Shown here: positions 26,231 through 50,034 of the stretch, in pieces
How the letters are laid out: each line of letters opens with the position of its first letter
Numbering within the stretch: the stretch's first letter is position 1
IMG/VR virus record: IMGVR_UViG_3300045988_115271
From: a virus
DNA: 64,000 nt
Strand: one strand, 5' to 3'
Notes under the pieces: generated by a model
What the model saw: only the letters and a program-made list of their open reading frames with translations
Told to the model about the DNA's origin: nothing
The model's database searches: none
Program-made: the position numbers and the translations under genes

Positions 26231-26509
26231 ATGGGTAGATCGACAGAGTACTACAGGACTCATCCCGAAGCCAGGAAGAAAAAGGCTAAAAAGGACAAGG
26301 AGATAAATGCCAGACCGGAACAGAAAGCCAAACGCCGAGAGCTTGGTCGTAAAAACTACGAAACGGACAAGAAGAAGGGTAAGGGCTGGAGAAAAGGCAA
26401 GGATTGTTCTCATACCAAGAACGGTCTTAGGTATAAATCAGTAAAAGCTAATAGGGGATCCAAATCGGATACAAAAGGTGACAAAAATGCACGAGGAGAT
26501 AGCAAATAG
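26231..26509 (+). CDS. highly basic Lys/Arg-rich protein (about 92 aa; start taken at the ATG at 26231, not the TTG at 26186 used in the ORF track)
   Basis: MGRSTEYYRTHPEARKKKAKKDK...; possibly nucleic-acid binding. Its 3' end overlaps the helicase gene. Confidence 0.4.
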   Translation: MGRSTEYYRTHPEARKKKAKKDKEINARPEQKAKRRELGRKNYETDKKKGKGWRKGKDCSHTKNGLRYKSVKANRGSKSDTKGDKNARGDSK

Positions 26510-27587
26510 GATAGATATAAGAAGGATATTCAAAACCTCTAAACAGGTTATGGAAGAGGCGTATGAGAATATCTTGAAATACAGGCGGGGAGAGCTTATC
26601 CCCGCTAAAACCGGATACGATTATATTGACGAGGCTTTGCTTGGAGGTATTTTTCCTCAGCACGCTATTGCCATAGGAGCCCGGCCATCTGTAGGTAAAT
26701 CGTATGTGGCCCAAAAGATATTGGAAAATGTGATGAATCCGATGATCAACCCGCAAGCAGAAGATTATTTTCTTGTTAATTGCGAGTTCGAAATGAATCC
26801 TCAAGATCTTCTTCTTCGCAGAATGAGCCAGGATATGAAAAAGCGAGCTCCTGAAATATTAAGAAGGCAAGATTCTAATACAGTAGAAGAGATGAGGATG
26901 TTTGAAATCCTTCAAGGTGAAATCAGAAATAATATAATATACATCGATGCTCCGTGTACGGTAAAAGAGTTTGAGGCGGCTGTGTATCATATAGCTACCA
27001 AACATAAAGACAAACGTCTTATAATATTTAAAGTCGATCATATTGCTTTGATAAAAAGAATGGGGTTAGATCCTAAGTCGGCTATAGATGATTTGGTGGC
27101 GGTTATGAACGAGGCTAAATTAGTATATAAAAACATATTTTTCCTCATCATATCCCAATTCAACAGAGAGATAGAAGGAAGGATAAAAAGCCCACAAGAG
27201 CAGCCTCCCCGTCTTTCTGACTTTTATCAGTCTGATACGCTGGGGCAACTATGTACGTTAATGATAGGTTTGCATAATCCTCGCAGATACGGGCTGGACA
27301 AGTATATGATATTTGGGAAAGACTGGTATCAGACTCTTGACCGGTTTAAAACTGAAAACAAAACATCATTCAGGACAGCCGGACTGGTGTTTCATCATAT
27401 ACTGAAGGTAAGGCAAGTTAGTATGGAAGAGCTTACTAATACAATCCACCCAGAGATCCTGCCGGGGCATGGATGGATGTACGGGGAGGGAGGGACGAAG
27501 TTCGTGAACCCCAACCAGCCGCCGACGCCTCCCAAGCTCTATACTGTGGAAGACGTTACGGATAATCAAGAACAGTCAGTATATTAA
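26478..27587 (+). CDS. DnaB-like replicative helicase (C-terminal RecA-like domain protein)
   Basis: IAIGARPSVGKSY matches the DnaB Walker A signature (GARPSMGKT); the ORF is the length of a DnaB C-terminal ATPase domain. Confidence 0.65.
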   Translation: MTKMHEEIANRIDIRRIFKTSKQVMEEAYENILKYRRGELIPAKTGYDYIDEALLGGIFPQHAIAIGARPSVGKSYVAQKILENVMNPMINPQAEDYFLVNCEFEMNPQDLLLRRMSQDMKKRAPEILRRQDSNTVEEMRMFEILQGEIRNNIIYIDAPCTVKEFEAAVYHIATKHKDKRLIIFKVDHIALIKRMGLDPKSAIDDLVAVMNEAKLVYKNIFFLIISQFNREIEGRIKSPQEQPPRLSDFYQSDTLGQLCTLMIGLHNPRRYGLDKYMIFGKDWYQTLDRFKTENKTSFRTAGLVFHHILKVRQVSMEELTNTIHPEILPGHGWMYGEGGTKFVNPNQPPTPPKLYTVEDVTDNQEQSVY

Positions 27588-27625
27588 AAAGGTAATAAAA
27601 TTGAAATTTCAAATAGTAAAATTGA

Positions 27626-28819
27626 TTGATGAGATTGGTTGAAAAACATATTATTAAAGATAACAGATTTGAAGATATTTGCCTCAAATCAGGATTGCTA
27701 TATAATTATGTCTTGTATAATGCGCGTAAAGGTATCTTCAATAAAGAATATCTGAATGAATATGAATTTTCAACCAAACTTTGTAGAGAAAATCAATTTG
27801 ATTTCAGGAATTTGCCCACTTCTGTTTCTCAACAAGTAGTTGGCCAAGTTTTTAAAAATATAAAATCATGGATTAGACTCAAGAAGGATTTTGAAAACAA
27901 TCCTTCCAAATACGATAATTGTTGTCCTCATCTACCTTCGTACAAGAAAGGCAAGAAACAGAACATGGTTGTGTTCACAACTTCTGCTTGTAGGCTAAAG
28001 AAGGATGGTTGTATTCATTTTGTTAAAAATATAATTCAACCAATTAAAACTGAAATAGGAGATAGTAAATTATGTCAGGTTAGAATCATTCCACAATCTA
28101 CATGCTATGTGGTTGAAGTAATTTATGAAAAGAAAGAACATAATCTAAGTCTTGATAAGGATAATGTTCTTTCGATTGATTTAGGATTGAATAATTTATG
28201 TTCATGTATCAGCAATGCCGGATTGGTTCCTTTCATTGTAAACGGGCGGATTATGAAATCTTTTAATCAGTGGTACAATAAGAGGAAAGCTAAGTTAATG
28301 TCTTATGTTGGAGGTAAGGGTACTTCTGAAAGACTTAGACAGCTAAATAATTATAGGAATTTTTGGATAGAAGACTACATCCACAAGGTTAGTCGATATA
28401 TTGTCAATTATTGTATTACTAACAACATTGGTAGTATCGTAATAGGTTTAAATAAAGGATGGAAACAAAAGATTAATCTTGGAAAGAAGATTAATCAAAA
28501 GTTTGTTGAAATACCTTTTTCAAGACTTATAGACAAAATATCCTATAAATGTAAGTTGGTAGGTATCAGCTTTCAAATTAATGAAGAATCCTATACATCA
28601 AAGGTTGATCATTTAGCTTTTGAGAAATTAGGGAAGCATGATGTTTACTTAGGCAAAAGAAAGAAACGTGGATTATTCCAAAGCTCAGTTGGAAAGTTGT
28701 TAAATGCGGATATCAATGGAGCTATTGGGATAGGTAGAAAAGTATTCGGTGATTCATTTGTAAACATGATAATCGATAGTGGGTTTGCGTTTAACCCGAT
28801 TAGAGTAAACATTTTGTAA
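27626..28819 (+). CDS. tnpB: TnpB/Cas12-like RuvC nuclease (IS200/IS605 OrfB family), lacking the zinc finger
   Basis: The N-terminal region is OrfB-like. RuvC-I is SIDLG (D185). RuvC-II is NEESYTSK (E320/321). RuvC-III is LLNADINGAIGIG (D362). The 33 residues between RuvC-II and RuvC-III contain no Cys at all. No TnpA lies adjacent. Confidence 0.75.
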   Translation: MMRLVEKHIIKDNRFEDICLKSGLLYNYVLYNARKGIFNKEYLNEYEFSTKLCRENQFDFRNLPTSVSQQVVGQVFKNIKSWIRLKKDFENNPSKYDNCCPHLPSYKKGKKQNMVVFTTSACRLKKDGCIHFVKNIIQPIKTEIGDSKLCQVRIIPQSTCYVVEVIYEKKEHNLSLDKDNVLSIDLGLNNLCSCISNAGLVPFIVNGRIMKSFNQWYNKRKAKLMSYVGGKGTSERLRQLNNYRNFWIEDYIHKVSRYIVNYCITNNIGSIVIGLNKGWKQKINLGKKINQKFVEIPFSRLIDKISYKCKLVGISFQINEESYTSKVDHLAFEKLGKHDVYLGKRKKRGLFQSSVGKLLNADINGAIGIGRKVFGDSFVNMIIDSGFAFNPIRVNIL

Positions 28820-28862
28820 TATAGATGTGAATTTAATGAATAAAATTTAAAATTTTAATAAC

Positions 28863-29465
28863 GTGAGACTTACAGTAGAAGAAAACGAATACCTGATAAG
28901 TAAGTTCCTTTTGGTTCTTACTGAGTTTGCAGGAGATGAAAGAGAGATGTTTTTAATCAACTCCATACATGATAAGGCGGTGGCGGATATGAATTATCGT
29001 CTTCCGTCTTTAATAAGCAGAGAACGTAAAAGACGAGTCATTGAGCTCCTTAAAGAAGGAACCAGAATAATCAAGGACTTTTCCGGCTATGCAGGTGATA
29101 TGGGTATGATTAACGAATACGATCGTCTAAAGAAAGAAATAGGTACCGTCCAAGACCAGCTTGGTGACGTAGAAGGTCAACTTCGGGCAGCAGGAGAAGT
29201 TATTAAAAAAGAACTTGATATGATTGCTGACCGGATCAAAGAAGACCTTCTCGACCGAGAGCTGGCTAAAAGTAATGCCGAGGCTGAAAGAAAAGCCAAA
29301 GTGGATCCGAGATACGAAGTAGCTTTAGGTGATTACAAGGAGATGCTGGAAGTGATTTTTACAACCAGAAACAAGTATTCTACGGTAGATTCTGTACATG
29401 ACGATCTTCGACAGTCGGTATCTACCGGTAGAAATTCGATTATTAAAGAAGGGTACAACAGTTAA
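28863..29465 (+). CDS. hypothetical coiled-coil protein (200 aa; GTG start)
   Basis: ORF in block with heptad-like charged repeats. Confidence 0.4.
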   Translation: MRLTVEENEYLISKFLLVLTEFAGDEREMFLINSIHDKAVADMNYRLPSLISRERKRRVIELLKEGTRIIKDFSGYAGDMGMINEYDRLKKEIGTVQDQLGDVEGQLRAAGEVIKKELDMIADRIKEDLLDRELAKSNAEAERKAKVDPRYEVALGDYKEMLEVIFTTRNKYSTVDSVHDDLRQSVSTGRNSIIKEGYNS

Positions 29466-43588: not shown

Positions 43589-46500
43589 CTACTTGTAGCT
43601 AACATCATCGTCCCCTTCCGAATCAGGAGTAGCGCCGATGAAGAACATCATTGACTTGTTGTTCGTCTGCTGCCACCAATTATAGGCGCGCGCTACGTCT
43701 TCCGGCGTCTTGATATTATACCATTGTTTGATAAACGTCTGTTTGGCGAGTTGCCTAAATAACTTAGACTCTCCCTTGTATGTACCGGATGTTACTTTAT
43801 CAAGTGAATAATTCCTAAGATCGGTAAGATCCTTCAGTTTTCGCCCCATAACAAACGGATCGTTAATGATATCTACCACGTTAAGCTCCATAATAAACGG
43901 CATCTGTGAAGCTATTTCGTTTATGGTTCTGAATCCGACATAGGATCCAAATTGAGTAAGCCAACTTTCTTCGTTTTCATCATCATCACGCCATCCGGCA
44001 AGAAGCATAGATACGGCCTGCATGATAAGGAACGTGCCGGCATAGACACTGAGACGTTTGAGATTGGTTTTTTCTACCTCATTCATATTGTCTTTATTTT
44101 CATTCCAGGCATCTATGATGTTTTTCATACCAGACTCGGAAGTCAGGCTAAATGTTTTGGCTATCATATTCTTTAACGTAATTGACAACCCTTCCTCTTC
44201 TTGCATTGTCTGGAAATTGAAGCCACGTCTTTTCCACAGACGTTGAGCCGACAGCACCAACCATCCTCGGTGGGCGGTCATGAACCTGGCTATCCAGTTG
44301 CGCGATGCGGCAGTTCGGTTTTCTTCATTCAAAGATCCGTTGCATATCTGCGACAAGCTACGAACTTGATTTCTGGTTATAGCCATCTGGGTTTCTACTT
44401 CCTCAACAGTAACACCCGATCCTGGCTTTACAACCACCTTCCCATCCACGACGTCTACCATACTCCATAAAGTACGATCTTTTAATGCGTTCCATTCTCT
44501 TTTTATGGTACTCTGTTCTTTATTGCGTTCTTTTTCCATCTTGAAATCTTGGAACGTGTAGAACCGGCCTTTGTAATAACGAACATTGTCCATAGTAGCA
44601 ATCATAACCTGCGGATCAAGAGGGTAGTTCAGGATTTCCATAAAAGCATACATAGGTGAACGCATTAAGGTCCTGGCCACTCTATTATATCCGGCACCAT
44701 ACATACGATTTCGGATATTGAATATCCCCATTCTCTCACCTATGACATATAATTTGCTTTTCCTATCTATGTCTCCGGTTTCTGCTATACAAGATGGAGC
44801 AAGGCGTGAAAATTCAGCCGATGCGTATTTAAGGGAGTCTTTGCTTATATACTGTCCTACGGCAGATTCCATGATGAGGTTGATATGACCTGTAAGGGCG
44901 CCGGTAGCTGCCACAAACGGGGACAGCGCCAGGTTCATAACCGACATAAATCTTTCAACGGCCATCATTATCCTGGTAAGGTCTACTGTGTACCCACCGA
45001 TGTTCACCGTAAGTTTTTTGGTGTTCATCCTAATGCCATAATAATGGTCATTGAAGAAGTCCCTGAACATCTGATATGCTTGGGTTGCTTCAGCTTTCTT
45101 ACCGCCTTCAAATTGCTTATTCAGTAACATCTGCTCCAGTCCTTGGGCAAGCTCTATAGATTTCTGCTTTTCGTTGTATAATGATGATTGCATCATAAGC
45201 ATCGAATAAGAGTAACCAAAATCATGAGATACGTCATCTTGGTTCTCTAATTCATATATGTAGTATTTAGGTATGGACCGAACCCTATCTTCCGGATCAT
45301 ATACTTCCCCTTGTCTGGTTTTACCGTATAGAGAATCGTCTACTCTGTCCAGGCAGAGATCTGATACAAAATTACGAACCGTATTTTTGAAGTTAATACC
45401 CAATCCTTCTACACGTTCTATGTCTTGTTTTGATATCTGTGGAATAGCATACAGGTTCGGGCTCTGCTCTTTGTATAGATCAAGGGATTGTCTTTTTATT
45501 TCCTTGAGTTTTTGAATCATATTCCACTGCTCTACGTTTTTAGTAGCGACCTCATTACCGTCAGCATCATACTTGATACCAAAGTCATTAAAATACGATT
45601 CATCACGATACAGGCTTTTCTTGGGCATGCGATGACCATACCCATGATCTTTTACATAATCAGGATTACGGCCGCTATTTTCGGCTTCAGATTCAGCCAC
45701 CCATGCCCTTGCAGGGTCAAAAGACAGGTATGATATGTCCATACCGTAATCTTGGGTGGATGTTCCGTTCTGTACGTCTTTAACCATCTGCGCCACATCT
45801 ATCTCACCTCGACCAATTTTGTCGATCATAGCCGCATATCCGGTAGGTGCCATGCGTTTATAGTATGAAAAGACCTGGCTCCTGGCAAATTCATTAACGA
45901 CCGCATTAGCTTCTTCTATACCTGATTCTCTTGTGTTATTTAAAAACAAGCTGGCCATCTTAGCATTGACGGCATTCCTAAAATCTCTACCGTCTAATTC
46001 TTTGCTTATTCCAAGCTTTTCTGACAAGTAGTTGGTTTCAGATACGGTAAACAGATGCCGGTTATCAGCAGCTTTGAATAACTTATCCCTTAAAGCCTGA
46101 ATCCTTTTTGCTTTCTTTGCCGTAGTATGACGTTGCACAAACTTCCATTCCACTTCCTTGGAGTCAGCAAGAGCATTTAAATAAGACTGATTTACTTCGT
46201 TTTCAGCCTTACTGCTTTTAGTAAGGTACTTATCAATATCTTCAAGACCCACCATCTTAGCATAATCTATCAAAATAGCGTAATCGGCTTCAATAGCTTC
46301 AGATGCGGCCCTAAAAGCATCTCTTTCAGATGAGGTAAATGTCGCTTCATTAATTTCTCCGATATCAGCCACATCTCGGTTGTTTCCGATTATTTCCTTG
46401 ATAATGGCCTTATTTTTTTCTATATCTTTTACAATCGAATCCACGTCAGTTGCATCTCTATCACTTGTCGTAGAACTAATGATGTCTTGTGCCATTTTAA

Positions 46501-49500
46501 GATACGAAGCCTTGTTATTTGATTCGGTACGCGCCGATTGTTCTGATTCTACGTCATTCCAAAACCGATCGTTGAATGACAGGTGACCCCCCAACATAAG
46601 TGTCTTCAGCGCAGCTTCTCCTCCAGATTCACGCTGAATAGTTCTCAATTTTTGCAGAAATGATTCTGATACGGCATTAGTGACATTATTTGATTCTTTT
46701 CTCCAAACTTCATTTATGGCTTGTATTTCTTTAGCCATCTTGAGTTGATCACCGGTTTTATCTACTCTCCTGGTTCCTACGTATATGTATTCTGAAGCTG
46801 CTTCCTTACGTTGTTTACGAAGCAGTCCTTCTTCTTCGTAGTTACTACTCTTATAGTAAGCAACCTCATCAAAATTACCACCGCTATCAATAAAAGGCTG
46901 CCTCAATATCCGCTTCTGCCGAGAAAGAGCATTAAGGTATTCTTTGGTTGTTTGAGAAACCGGATGCCCTAATTCTTCTTCGGCCTTTTTGTATATGGAT
47001 TCCATTCTTGTGGCATAACTTTCACTAAATTCCAGTTCTGAATTTTCAGCATCCCACTTCTCCATCTGTTCTGTATAAATCTTTTCCTGCTCGATGGTAA
47101 AAATATCGGTATTAACCCTATCGGACGACGGTTTAAATTTAGCGTTCTCAGTAACCGTATTTCCGTCCTTGTCAACTACTTCTCTTTTAAATACGTAATT
47201 ACGGTTATTGTCAACCACATCATTGATTTCTTCTTCTGATATCTCTATGTTCATGGCGGTCGCAAACGCTCGCATCTGCGCCAGCTTCTTATTACGATCG
47301 TATTTAGCCATATCAAGAGCACTACGAAGATAATTAGAAGTTTTTCCGTCTACTTTCTGAAGCAGTTTTTCAAATTCAGATTTGTTAAAACCATGCTTTT
47401 TCGCATATGCCAGGAAGTCGGATATGGCGGGCTGGGCATTCACCATCGCATTGTAATTGTCTTTGGCAATCATAGCTCCAAGAGCGTTATTGAACGGGCT
47501 GGAGGAATGTTCTAATATACCAAACCACCTACTTATCCAGGACACATCATGTTGAACCTTATCAAAGAACTCTTTTACTCTCTTTACCTTATCTGCCGGC
47601 ACATGAAGTTCGTTCATTAACTTATCAAGCAACGTACTTTCATCAAGATCTTGTACTGATTTAATATCAGACTGAATACCGTTGATGTCGGCAATGACGG
47701 TATTGATCCTATTTGTATAATCCTGCTTTTCACGCTCATCAAATTCGGTACTTCTGTTACGGATATATCCTCGAAGATCGTTCATGATCGGAAGAACCTG
47801 GTTGTTGATAATATCTACGTTCTTTCGATCATTGGTATTGAAATGAAGCTTACCGTCTTTGGTATCACCATGAAGGATAGTATTTACTACGTTGCTTAAG
47901 TATCTAACCTGAGCTTCGGCTGTGGAGATCATGCTGTTCATGGCGGCCGCCATCTCATTCTTGTCTATTTCGGTCTCTACCTTATTTATCTTATCTTCTA
48001 TGGTCTTAAGCTGGGCAAGGGTCATAGACGTAGTTACAGCCCTATCAGAGCTTATCTGACGTAAGTCTCTTAACGTTTTTCTCAATGCCCGGATCTTAGA
48101 CTCAAGAAACTTGTTCTTCTTCATAGAAGAAAGGGAATATAATGTAAAATCATTATCCTTCAAAAGAGAAGTATCAAATCCTTTATCTATGTCGGTAATA
48201 GCAAGATCACGAATATTTTTAATAACGTTATTCAAATCCTGTCTTTGGGTTGATAAAGCTGATTTAAGCCAGTTTACAATTCCAGAGAGAAGCTGCCGGA
48301 CGCGCCCCAGGAAGGAGGTGGGCTCTACCGGCGCCTGTGCTGTGCCGGTCTGCATCTCCCTGGCGAGGATCTTTCCAAGAATTTCTCTCCTAACAGCATT
48401 ATCAAGTTCAGAGCCTTCATATACCTTACCGTATGTATTATAATACTGACCTGCATACTGATTCCATTCTTCAGTGCCTTCTACATCTTGCAAAACAGAT
48501 TCAACAGCATTCTGATCTCTGTACGCCTCTACGAGAAAGTGTGCTGTTTCTTCTACTAAGTCAGACAAAGTAGCATCTTCACCGACTGCTATTACGTTAT
48601 TGGCAATATCCGCCAATGCCTTAGCAGAAGGTTCGTGTCCGTATTTAGTTTGGTACTTCTCTATATAATCGGTCATGCCAACGACACTAACGCCCAGCGT
48701 TTTCAGTATCTCAACAATAGAATTTCGTTGATTACGTTCCTCTTGGCTATAATCCGATACTATCTTAGCTTTAGTATCAGCATAAAGATCATTGTCTTCT
48801 AATATAAATGAAACTACAAGCGCATCAAAGTGATCGTATTTAGCATCCAATTCATTGTATCTTCCAGACTTAAGATCGCTCTTTATCTGCTCCTTGCTAA
48901 CTCTTTCTGTTCCTCCGGTGGCGAGTCTCATAGTTACCTTACTATTATCCAATGAATTTATGGTTATCATACCCTGGTCGTTCATGGAAACATCGGAACC
49001 AAAATGATTACGGAGCTCAGTGTAGGATAAGGCTGAATTGAAAAGTCTAATTTGTCCTGTATGTCCTTCTCCTGTAATATAATAGCTTCTTGTTTCCGGA
49101 TCGAATATCTTGGATCCGGACAAAAGACCTTTCTTTATAAGGTAGTTAATTATACCGCCTTTTGTTGATAAAGAAGTAGAAGCAGAAGCGGTCATGACCG
49201 GTATAAAAGACTTGGGATTATTAAGAACATACTTTCCAGCCTTGTAAGTAATGTCTGCCACTCCATCCACGGTAGATTCTTGAACGATGCCTGATAAGAA
49301 TCCTATTCTGATATCATTCCCGCCAGAGCGAAGAGCTTCTCCGTAATCTTCAAATAATTGATTACGATCATTCATAAAAAACAAACGAGGTTCTCCAGTC
49401 TGATACGTTACACCCACAGGATTAGAATCTGTTTCTGGTAGCTCTTCTGGACTAAATATCTTAAGACCGTATTTTATAACCATATAATTAACATCATTAT

Positions 49501-50011
49501 CCTGTACCATAGATACGGGAGTGAAGTCCGAAGATATAGCATCTTGTAGATACTGCCCTGAGTCTATTCCTGGTTCTTCCGGCACGGAGATACTTGACGG
49601 AACCATAGCATCCACCAACATAATATTATCACCCAGATCTTGGCTATAAAATCCAAAGCCTGATTCTTGAATCCCATAAGGTGCATCTGATTTCGACACA
49701 AGAATAGGGTTGCTCATCTTAGAAGCCTTATCCAGCACCCTTTCTCTATAGGTCTCTGGAATAAGGCCGATGTTAGATTTTACCTTATTGTAAGCCTGTT
49801 TGTTGATAGGCACATTCCTTCTCCAGTCACCAAAAGCCTTTAAGAACTTATTAGAAAATACGGTTTTAAAAACAGTAGTAGCCCGTTCCCTATTCTCCAT
49901 AAGAGGAATAGATGCTATTTTATCAAACAACATAGACCTGTCCCCTGATCTGGTAGAGACAGAAACAACTTTATTTTTATTATCTCTTTTAATAATACAC
50001 GTTGATGTCAT
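43589..50011 (-). CDS. giant protein of unknown function (2140 aa; possibly an ejection or virion component)
   Basis: Uninterrupted 6.4-kb ORF. The sequence is largely alpha-helical and charged, with a hydrophobic segment near the C-terminus (VYAGTFLIMQAVSMLLAGW). I see no catalytic motif. The ATG at 50011 is preceded by a TAccTTTG -7 motif. Confidence 0.6.
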   Translation of the reverse strand: MTSTCIIKRDNKNKVVSVSTRSGDRSMLFDKIASIPLMENRERATTVFKTVFSNKFLKAFGDWRRNVPINKQAYNKVKSNIGLIPETYRERVLDKASKMSNPILVSKSDAPYGIQESGFGFYSQDLGDNIMLVDAMVPSSISVPEEPGIDSGQYLQDAISSDFTPVSMVQDNDVNYMVIKYGLKIFSPEELPETDSNPVGVTYQTGEPRLFFMNDRNQLFEDYGEALRSGGNDIRIGFLSGIVQESTVDGVADITYKAGKYVLNNPKSFIPVMTASASTSLSTKGGIINYLIKKGLLSGSKIFDPETRSYYITGEGHTGQIRLFNSALSYTELRNHFGSDVSMNDQGMITINSLDNSKVTMRLATGGTERVSKEQIKSDLKSGRYNELDAKYDHFDALVVSFILEDNDLYADTKAKIVSDYSQEERNQRNSIVEILKTLGVSVVGMTDYIEKYQTKYGHEPSAKALADIANNVIAVGEDATLSDLVEETAHFLVEAYRDQNAVESVLQDVEGTEEWNQYAGQYYNTYGKVYEGSELDNAVRREILGKILAREMQTGTAQAPVEPTSFLGRVRQLLSGIVNWLKSALSTQRQDLNNVIKNIRDLAITDIDKGFDTSLLKDNDFTLYSLSSMKKNKFLESKIRALRKTLRDLRQISSDRAVTTSMTLAQLKTIEDKINKVETEIDKNEMAAAMNSMISTAEAQVRYLSNVVNTILHGDTKDGKLHFNTNDRKNVDIINNQVLPIMNDLRGYIRNRSTEFDEREKQDYTNRINTVIADINGIQSDIKSVQDLDESTLLDKLMNELHVPADKVKRVKEFFDKVQHDVSWISRWFGILEHSSSPFNNALGAMIAKDNYNAMVNAQPAISDFLAYAKKHGFNKSEFEKLLQKVDGKTSNYLRSALDMAKYDRNKKLAQMRAFATAMNIEISEEEINDVVDNNRNYVFKREVVDKDGNTVTENAKFKPSSDRVNTDIFTIEQEKIYTEQMEKWDAENSELEFSESYATRMESIYKKAEEELGHPVSQTTKEYLNALSRQKRILRQPFIDSGGNFDEVAYYKSSNYEEEGLLRKQRKEAASEYIYVGTRRVDKTGDQLKMAKEIQAINEVWRKESNNVTNAVSESFLQKLRTIQRESGGEAALKTLMLGGHLSFNDRFWNDVESEQSARTESNNKASYLKMAQDIISSTTSDRDATDVDSIVKDIEKNKAIIKEIIGNNRDVADIGEINEATFTSSERDAFRAASEAIEADYAILIDYAKMVGLEDIDKYLTKSSKAENEVNQSYLNALADSKEVEWKFVQRHTTAKKAKRIQALRDKLFKAADNRHLFTVSETNYLSEKLGISKELDGRDFRNAVNAKMASLFLNNTRESGIEEANAVVNEFARSQVFSYYKRMAPTGYAAMIDKIGRGEIDVAQMVKDVQNGTSTQDYGMDISYLSFDPARAWVAESEAENSGRNPDYVKDHGYGHRMPKKSLYRDESYFNDFGIKYDADGNEVATKNVEQWNMIQKLKEIKRQSLDLYKEQSPNLYAIPQISKQDIERVEGLGINFKNTVRNFVSDLCLDRVDDSLYGKTRQGEVYDPEDRVRSIPKYYIYELENQDDVSHDFGYSYSMLMMQSSLYNEKQKSIELAQGLEQMLLNKQFEGGKKAEATQAYQMFRDFFNDHYYGIRMNTKKLTVNIGGYTVDLTRIMMAVERFMSVMNLALSPFVAATGALTGHINLIMESAVGQYISKDSLKYASAEFSRLAPSCIAETGDIDRKSKLYVIGERMGIFNIRNRMYGAGYNRVARTLMRSPMYAFMEILNYPLDPQVMIATMDNVRYYKGRFYTFQDFKMEKERNKEQSTIKREWNALKDRTLWSMVDVVDGKVVVKPGSGVTVEEVETQMAITRNQVRSLSQICNGSLNEENRTAASRNWIARFMTAHRGWLVLSAQRLWKRRGFNFQTMQEEEGLSITLKNMIAKTFSLTSESGMKNIIDAWNENKDNMNEVEKTNLKRLSVYAGTFLIMQAVSMLLAGWRDDDENEESWLTQFGSYVGFRTINEIASQMPFIMELNVVDIINDPFVMGRKLKDLTDLRNYSLDKVTSGTYKGESKLFRQLAKQTFIKQWYNIKTPEDVARAYNWWQQTNNKSMMFFIGATPDSEGDDDVSYK

Positions 50012-50034
50012 AGTAAAACATTTTTGTTATGAGA

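Follow-up and report, generated by a model that had tools for sequence, protein, structure and literature searches.

A tnpB gene lies between a DnaB-like helicase gene and a hypothetical gene in a 64 000-nucleotide stretch of viral DNA (IMG/VR record IMGVR_UViG_3300045988_115271; hereafter the window), and this position raises the question of whether the gene serves the phage or belongs to a mobile element, and, if the latter, how such an element settles and spreads there. An earlier note on the same DNA had offered two answers: a TnpA-less IS1341-type insertion and a domesticated phage nuclease. We find that epsilon crAss-like gut phages are polymorphic for the segment 27591..28865, an insertion whose last three bases are the start codon of the gene downstream. 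The segment is probably a TnpA-less, IS607-derived homing element which carries only tnpB and an overlapping guide-RNA scaffold and which would spread by RNA-guided cleavage of empty sites beside a target-adjacent motif (TAM).

The insertion and its right end

The window shares ∼95% identity with the epsilon crAss-like phage crAssE-Sib (OR575929, 151 kb, human gut), which does not carry the segment: the alignment of crAssE-Sib to the window runs to position 27574 and resumes at 28845, and a base-level comparison places the element-specific sequence (∼1.27 kb) at 27591..28865. A single search of viral contigs, with the 32 nt that open the downstream gene as query, gathered 119 helicase-site alleles from epsilon crAss-like phages, 111 of them empty and eight occupied, and the insertion is therefore polymorphic and not a fixed phage gene. 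The earlier note's insertion between DnaB and the next gene is thus matched by empty alleles in related phages. The empty alleles have the form ...TATTA(7–10)TAAGAACCATG (...TATT-A7-10-TAAGAAC[C/T] ATG|AGACT[A/G]AC) and the occupied alleles the form ...AATAAC GTG|AGACTTAC; at the junction itself, all 111 empty alleles read CCATG|AGACT or CTATG|AGACT and all eight occupied alleles AACGTG|AGACT. The features of the locus and of a second target site in the window are as follows.

26478..27587, plus strand: DnaB-like helicase gene, the upstream neighbour of tnpB
27591..27628, plus strand: left end or 5' leader (38 nt, GGTAATAAAATTGAAATTTCAAATAGTAAAATTGATTG), the first sequence missing from empty alleles
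27626..28819, plus strand: tnpB open reading frame (ORF) from a TTG start (397 aa)
27629..28819, plus strand: tnpB ORF from the ATG directly after the TTG (396 aa), intact
28820..28865, plus strand: right end, in which a 43-nt spacer precedes the GTG; it terminates in AAAATTTTAATAAC-GTG and is conserved through the GTG in all copies
28863..28865, plus strand: GTG with which the 200-aa gene starts; it comes from the element and stands in place of the ATG of empty alleles
28863..29465, plus strand: hypothetical phage gene (200 aa), the downstream neighbour, with its start codon replaced
50009..50022, minus strand: empty allele of the 'muzzle' target site; its 14 nt (AATGTTTTACTATG) close with the ATG that opens the 2140-aa 'muzzle' gene

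The behaviour of the right end was followed through close copies of the element, found at 80 viral and ten metagenomic loci and at 14–15 different phage genes; more widely, one viral scan yielded 163 loci that encode a relative. Similarity among them runs through ...AATTTTA[A/G]T[A/G]AC-GTG (...AATTTTARTRAC-GTG) and stops right after it. In all 22 flank classes (14–15 genes, with ORFs of 64 to more than 985 aa) the right-end GTG opens the downstream ORF in frame, and at all six sites for which empty alleles are available (helicase, muzzle, S_L067, S_L029, S_L034 and S_L054) it sits at the position of the gene's ATG, so that the displaced gene keeps a start codon. This supply of a downstream start codon had been overlooked in the earlier note. 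The muzzle site, at which the 14 nt lie upstream at the start of the minus-strand gene 43589..50011, is empty in the window; a sister TnpB element, 85% identical, stands in place of those 14 nt in other epsilon crAss-like phages, and the muzzle ATG becomes GTG. There are 76 empty and 39 occupied alleles at S_L067 and 23 empty and 14 occupied alleles at S_L029, and S_L034 and S_L054 are also polymorphic. Across the six sites only position −3 differs consistently, being A in empty alleles (C/T/G-ATG) and G in occupied alleles (C-GTG), and we infer from this that the A is part of the TAM. In multi-copy relatives from Methanosarcina, Promethearchaeota and other sources the right-end termini differ, so that termination in GTG is a peculiarity of the crAss-phage subfamily. 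A search of the literature on TnpB in phages, homing, crAss-like phages and start codons found no description of start-codon targeting; as far as this search shows, it is new both that the right end replaces a start codon and that populations of gut crAss-like phages are polymorphic for it.

At the other side, full-length copies possess a left end (LE) of ∼60 nt that starts right after the target ATG (GACATG|ATTGAATAAATT..., AATATG|GTTGAATAAATT...) and contains an in-frame stop two codons on and, by inspection, Bacteroidota-promoter-like sequences. Clean ATG|LE junctions are found at S_L029 and L069, where TG is present at both junctions of the element; the left junction is TA at S_L067 and L063. 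The 38-nt leader in the window is shorter than this full-length form, and its proximal 29 nt are common to copies at another site (L026). The possibility that tnpB itself starts with an ATG hijacked from the target gene does not hold at the helicase site, where the leader is element-specific and is shared with that other site.

Two further observations concern these sites. The 3' end of the DnaB gene beside the insertion (27560–27590) lacks a 24-nt stretch rich in Glu/Gln/Lys codons (GAACAAGAACAAGAGACAAAGGAA) that is present in crAssE-Sib (L001, 5560–5600); other empty alleles have a similar but variable stretch at the DnaB C-terminus, and either a co-conversion tract or divergence between lineages could explain the difference. 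One empty S_L029 allele (L346) starts with GTG and not ATG (TTGAC GTG GCAAGG), which could be a TAM escape or an excision footprint.

The TnpB protein and a candidate RNA at the 3' end of its gene

The TnpB sequence matches the NCBIfam family NF040570 (guided_TnpB) over residues 25–371 with 141.8 bits (cutoff 100), the Pfam families OrfB_IS605 (PF01385; 61.1 bits) and Cas12f1-like_TNB (PF07282; 32.0 bits) and PHROG 506, in agreement with the TnpB of OrfB_IS605 architecture that had been read from the ORF in the earlier note. Conservation was assessed in an alignment of the window TnpB with 123 relatives, each representing a 50%-identity cluster and 36–50% identical to it. Four positions define the active site.

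28178–28180, plus strand: RuvC-I Asp184, invariant in 124 of 124 (D185 of the earlier note)
28445–28447, plus strand: Gly273 at the canonical RuvC-II position (IVIG273xNxxWK), Gly in 124 of 124
28586–28588, plus strand: alternative Glu320 in EESYTSK, present in 123 of 124 (E321 of the earlier note)
28709–28711, plus strand: RuvC-III Asp361, invariant in 124 of 124 (D362 of the earlier note)

The window TnpB thus retains each of the three catalytic positions and is presumably an active nuclease. The RuvC triad proposed earlier therefore stands as three conserved residues, but the Glu of EESYTSK is not at the canonical RuvC-II position, which is occupied by Gly273. This change from Glu to Gly first appeared in a phmmer alignment to PDB Cas12f sequences, the matches being otherwise weak. 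An AlphaFold2 model built from a 99-sequence alignment has a mean predicted local distance difference test (pLDDT) score of 94.9 and a predicted template-modelling (pTM) score of 0.90 and contains a β-strand (residues 314–318) that precedes Glu320; prediction from the single sequence gave a pLDDT of 36 and was useless. The best fold matches in the PDB are Cas12f, ISFba1 TnpB (8iaz), ISDra2 TnpB (8h1j) and the mimivirus Fanzor2 (9b0l), with TM-scores of 0.56–0.64.

The motifs SIDLG, EESYTSK and NADING are all present, and no cysteine occurs among the 33 residues that separate EESYTSK from NADING. Over the longer segment of residues 310–372 there is again no cysteine in the window TnpB and there are 0–3 in its 123 aligned relatives, none of which has a C4 zinc finger; a conserved Y-x-G-K-R-x-K-R-G-L-F motif occupies the place of the finger. 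The sole common cysteine of the segment, Cys326 (82 of 124), lies six residues past Glu320. The absence of the zinc finger, which had been pointed out in the earlier note, is hence confirmed, although it is a trait of a large described clade and is not specific to this gene.

The window TnpB is of the RuvC-II-rearranged (RIIr), or E-alt, type, and both of its oddities, the missing zinc finger and the atypical Glu, are published traits of the clade. The rearranged TnpBs of Altae-Tran et al. (2023; PMC10691335) likewise have Gly in place of the canonical RuvC-II Glu, an alternative Glu on the next strand and an NADxN RuvC-III motif; some rearranged branches are virus-enriched, and some large TnpB branches have no zinc finger, so that its absence does not disqualify a protein as a TnpB. 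'E-alt' enzymes were also described by Yoon et al. (2023; PMC10711439), whose search pattern demanded CxxC...CxxC and whose set therefore leaves out zinc-finger-less E-alt proteins. In RIIr/E-alt TnpBs the alternative Glu precedes the first zinc-finger Cys position by about six residues, a spacing kept here by Glu320 and Cys326. The RuvC-I motif reads D-L-G (position 185 being L, I or F across the clade), whereas pro-Fanzors have D-P-G, which places the protein outside the 'pro-Fanzor' subgroup. The intact triad and the full-length C-terminus are unlike those of a TldR, the nuclease-dead TnpB-like repressor.

A guide RNA overlapping the 3' end of the ORF had been expected in the earlier note, and covariance-model analysis finds a motif there that runs through 28820..28865. 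In TnpB and IS607 elements, the DNA that directly follows the right end on its 3' side serves as guide (PMC10711439; 10.1101/2023.11.20.567912), and this rule gives the last of the RNA features.

28746..28865, plus strand: candidate omega RNA (right-end RNA, reRNA) scaffold of five helices, supported by covariation, which takes in the ORF 3' end and the right end
28746–50/28772–76 and 28754–59/28764–69, plus strand: scaffold helices 1 and 2 (RNAalifold)
28787–91/28860–64, 28799–804/28832–37 and 28841–46/28852–57, plus strand: scaffold helices 3 to 5 (RNAalifold)
28866..28885, plus strand: putative guide-encoding segment (20 nt, AGACTTACAGTAGAAGAAAA)

A conserved structured RNA motif, which may be expressed, reaches from the ORF 3' end through the right end. 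Synonymous-site entropy falls to 0.12 in the last 18 codons, compared with ∼0.43 elsewhere (46 distinct copies). RNAalifold applied to 41 close copies returns the five helices, with five pairs changed on both sides versus 1.9 ± 0.7 in shuffled alignments (0 of 500 reach this value). A covariance model built from the close copies locates the motif on the plus strand at or just past the 3' end of the TnpB tblastn match in 45 of 75 distant loci. Compensatory changes are seen there in all 28 pairs, with 93.2% of cells paired (56.5% when shuffled and at most 50.6% with partners slid) and a covariation score of 0.73 versus 0.19, figures that are inflated because the alignment was fitted to the model. 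When the first two helices were realigned by sequence only with MAFFT, RNAalifold recovered stem 1 and three pairs of stem 2, and the stems covary by eye (UCGGU/AUCGA, UCCCU/AGGGA and CCAGU/AUUGG). The hairpin GGGTT...AACCC of the minimum free energy (MFE) structure was rejected, as it has several uncompensated mismatches in the alignment and RNAalifold favours a long-range GCGUU/AACGU helix. An Rfam scan of 27400–29100 (E ≤ 10) gave chance matches only, with no RAGATH-18 or other omega-RNA family among them. A structure formed in single-stranded DNA fits the serine-recombinase lineage of the element (see below) less well, and recombinase-binding sites in the right end could account for part of the constraint at the 3' end.

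Lineage and proposed mode of spread

No match to a serine-recombinase TnpA was found in the 64-kb window by tblastn with two TnpA queries; Y1 (HUH) TnpA was not searched for. A serine recombinase lies directly upstream of tnpB in IS607-type elements of Helicobacter phages (TnpB 40% identical), in a metagenomic element (TnpB 46% identical) and, in a search with a 12-sequence alignment, at 19 of 80 loci from genomes of bacteria and archaea, Hallella (Prevotellaceae) among them. The TnpA genes seen beside relatives are serine recombinases only, no search having been made for Y1 TnpA or hairpin ends. With serine recombinases beside relatives of 40–51% identity, the lineage is assigned to the IS607 type, and on these gene neighbourhoods the element is a TnpA-less derivative of the IS607 family and not an autonomous member. 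The motif TTTTAATAACGT or AATAACGT is found 3' of tnpB in L421 and L423 (Hallella, ∼2742–2790; TnpB 41%) and in L413 (2561–2611; 51%), and the Hallella locus with TTTTAATAACGT just past tnpB has a serine recombinase immediately upstream, its element ends being unmapped. Such right-end motifs in TnpA-bearing relatives point to a Bacteroidota IS607 ancestor of the phage elements. The earlier 'TnpA-less IS1341-type insertion' thus holds as to the TnpA-less insertion, given the empty alleles, but the nearest autonomous relatives are of the IS607 and not the IS605/IS1341 type.

Further tnpB genes, encoding proteins of 407 and 379 aa, occur in the same phage group (L005, 494–1717, minus strand; L003, 874–2013; L002, 3004–4227). 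The last of these corresponds to crAssE-Sib 64190–65413 and encodes a 407-aa TnpB that is 43% identical to the window TnpB, with a 3' untranslated region of ∼215 nt; in the paper describing crAssE-Sib (PMC11054128) the two 'transposase' genes of the phage are both of the TnpB family.

Homing driven by TnpB has been shown for IS605 and IS607 elements (10.1101/2023.11.20.567912; PMC10711439; PMC13565253). As a homing element, the segment in the window would be transcribed along with the replication operon, and TnpB would trim the mRNA from which it is made to a 3' portion that acts as omega RNA, the guide being the first ∼16–20 nt of the downstream gene. The resulting ribonucleoprotein (RNP) would cut related phage genomes with an empty allele, in which a TAM including the A of the ATG is followed by the same 5' coding sequence, and would spare its own locus because the element has turned ATG into GTG; the G at −3 would at once protect the locus and preserve a start codon. 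During co-infection the break would be repaired from the occupied genome and the element copied in, as in a gene drive. Jumps to new start codons would probably depend on a serine-recombinase TnpA acting in trans and recombining at a TG core dinucleotide. IS607 elements undergo conservative recombination at a core dinucleotide contained in their target motif/TAM (PMC10711439; 10.1101/2023.11.20.567912). The ATG|LE...GTG layout is as predicted for IS607, because such recombination leaves the core dinucleotide at both junctions, with the target motif doubling as TAM; the core would here be TG and the motif (N)ATG, in place of GG and TGGG. We put forward more tentatively, as conceivable but short of an even chance, the wider proposal of a zinc-finger-less IS607-derived TnpB lineage that takes the ATG start as its target motif, hands the gene a GTG, destroys the TAM in doing so and acts as an RNA-guided gene drive at almost no cost to the phage.

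Several results weigh against homing. The proposed cleavage and TAM are deduced solely from the comparison of empty and occupied junctions. At the helicase site, position +6 of the downstream gene (28871, a synonymous Leu position; loci L096–L214) is T in all eight occupied alleles and A or G in all 111 empty alleles (variants of the 5' segment, AGACTAAC / AGACTGAC), so that the empty alleles mismatch the putative guide at seed position 6 and homing may have been lost here; the T may be a lineage marker reflecting shared descent, or the remaining empty alleles may be guide-mismatched and drive-resistant. At three of the six sites (window 27588–27591, L005 ∼2950 and L034 ∼2498), the helicase site included, 11–14 bp upstream of the target ATG are gone and the left end is shortened; these are therefore not simple conservative insertions, and the deletions at these independent sites are of similar size. 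TnpB proteins differ by 13–22% between sites and are nearly identical within a site, from which it follows that colonization of new start codons is rare. No TnpA adjoins any of the ∼90 close copies (78–100% identity), nor is one present in the window (serine recombinases searched). The 120-nt RNA is no more stable than shuffled sequence (MFE z = −0.51), and the case for it therefore rests on covariation. In two other lineages, L406 (Bacteroides phage C3_41T2LP; ATG at 2696–2698) and L419 (ATG at 2751–2753), with downstream ORFs of 80 and 485 aa, the RNA motif ends at a gene start in ATG and not GTG, so that 'ATG as TAM, GTG as immunity' cannot be general; elements that lie flush with a gene start may thus occur beyond the GTG subfamily.

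Some of these results also speak for a passive relic, in which an old transposition left a TnpB and RNA that cut nothing useful and are kept by vertical descent and ordinary phage recombination. The +6 mismatch in 111 of 111 empty alleles, the lineage-specific elements at each site and the failure to find a TnpA in the window by serine-recombinase tblastn accord with it, as does the decay of several copies: L371 has an internal 0.9-kb deletion that leaves the first ∼88 codons and the right end, L276 is without its 3' end and right end, and L024 and L037 have premature stops. We nevertheless consider a relic unlikely, since the ORF in the window is intact and 99–100% identical in at least seven independent contigs with every catalytic residue kept, the 3'-end synonymous sites and RNA pairs are constrained, and at other sites the empty alleles are perfect matches to the guide and are interspersed with occupied ones. 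This interspersion is best seen at S_L067, where occupied and empty alleles are mixed among downstream-flank haplotypes (an occupied allele is the nearest neighbour in 16 of 34 occupied alleles); it fits repeated gain by conversion, and repeated loss or recombination would look alike. It also bears on the idea that the RNP is a weapon that cuts rival crAss-like phages without the element, for which exclusion would suffice and copying would not be required. Such a role shares the guide/TAM logic of homing, from which it is indistinguishable by sequence alone, and phage homing endonucleases both home and exclude competitors (PMC13565253, section 3.2); with the S_L067 pattern fitting gain by conversion, we regard exclusion without copying as improbable.

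Least credible is a domesticated replication or recombination protein, or a TldR-like RNA-guided regulator of the downstream gene, to which we attach very little weight. The location in the replication module, between DnaB and downstream genes, and a guide that would match the 5' end of the adjacent gene speak for it, but the gene is missing from 111 of 119 phages at the helicase site, sister copies stand beside unrelated genes (muzzle protein and others), the catalytic triad is intact, unlike that of TldR, the composition looks foreign and copies are decaying. Patchiness, unrelated flanking genes and decayed copies together point to a selfish element, and the domesticated phage nuclease of the earlier note is disfavoured by the same evidence (eight of 119 alleles, sisters at many sites and decayed copies).

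Related systems, significance and neighbouring genes

The element is most readily compared with the IS607 family (Helicobacter IS607, CboIStron and ISXfa1, with a serine-recombinase TnpA and TnpB), a serine recombinase adjoining its 40–51%-identity relatives. It shares with this family a short right end, a putative guide RNA overlapping the tnpB 3' end, the lack of inverted repeats and target duplication, a proposed target motif overlapping the crossover site and, in the clean insertions at S_L029 and L069, the same dinucleotide (here TG) at both junctions. It differs in that the window element and its close copies are without TnpA, that the core/target would be (N)ATG at a start codon in place of GG, TGGG or AGGAG, that translation of the displaced gene begins in the right end and that the RNA is not RAGATH-18 and has no Rfam match. 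The IS1341 group and IS200/IS605 elements such as ISDra2 are alike in the presence of tnpB only and an omega RNA drawn from the ORF 3' end and right end, and in a homing logic in which the empty site is cut, as would be the case for the window element. ISDra2 differs in its canonical Glu, C4 zinc finger, Y1 TnpA lineage and T-rich TAM 5' of the left end, and the fold similarity of its TnpB to the window protein is moderate (TM-score ∼0.62, 12% identity). The free-standing homing endonuclease genes of T-even phages (Seg and Mob) are likewise small nuclease genes wedged between conserved phage genes, patchy in distribution and expected to spread in co-infections; here recognition would be RNA-guided and not by protein, and the element sits precisely on a start codon and has a conserved, well-defined end.

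If the proposal is true, the cost of insertion is solved not by splicing, as in IStrons, but by landing on a start codon and resupplying it. The crAss-like phages are among the most abundant human-gut viruses, and a TnpB drive at many loci would visibly shape their population genetics; such a drive is testable, since occupied and empty alleles occur together in public metagenomes. With only 396 aa, no zinc, a very short putative TAM (perhaps ATG alone) and a defined ∼120-nt scaffold, such a TnpB could be of interest for genome editing, and the RNA motif, absent from Rfam, could be added as a guide-RNA family of this TnpB clade.

The tnpB ORF has a GC content of 27–33%, compared with ∼40% in its flanks, and 396 aa, the length from the ATG, is also that of identical TnpB proteins in public assemblies. 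The helicase stop (27587) is 38 nt from the TTG and the tnpB stop (28819) is 43 nt from the next start (28863), lengths that had been given correctly in the earlier note. A scan for σ70 promoters and terminators showed no enrichment, with a tool that does not cover Bacteroidota-type promoters. Just 3' of the replication genes, at 30390–30641 and 31158–32858, the window encodes an acyl carrier protein (ACP)-like protein (weak PP-binding match) and a 566-aa flotillin/SPFH (Band_7) protein, which are odd cargo for a phage and are unrelated to tnpB.

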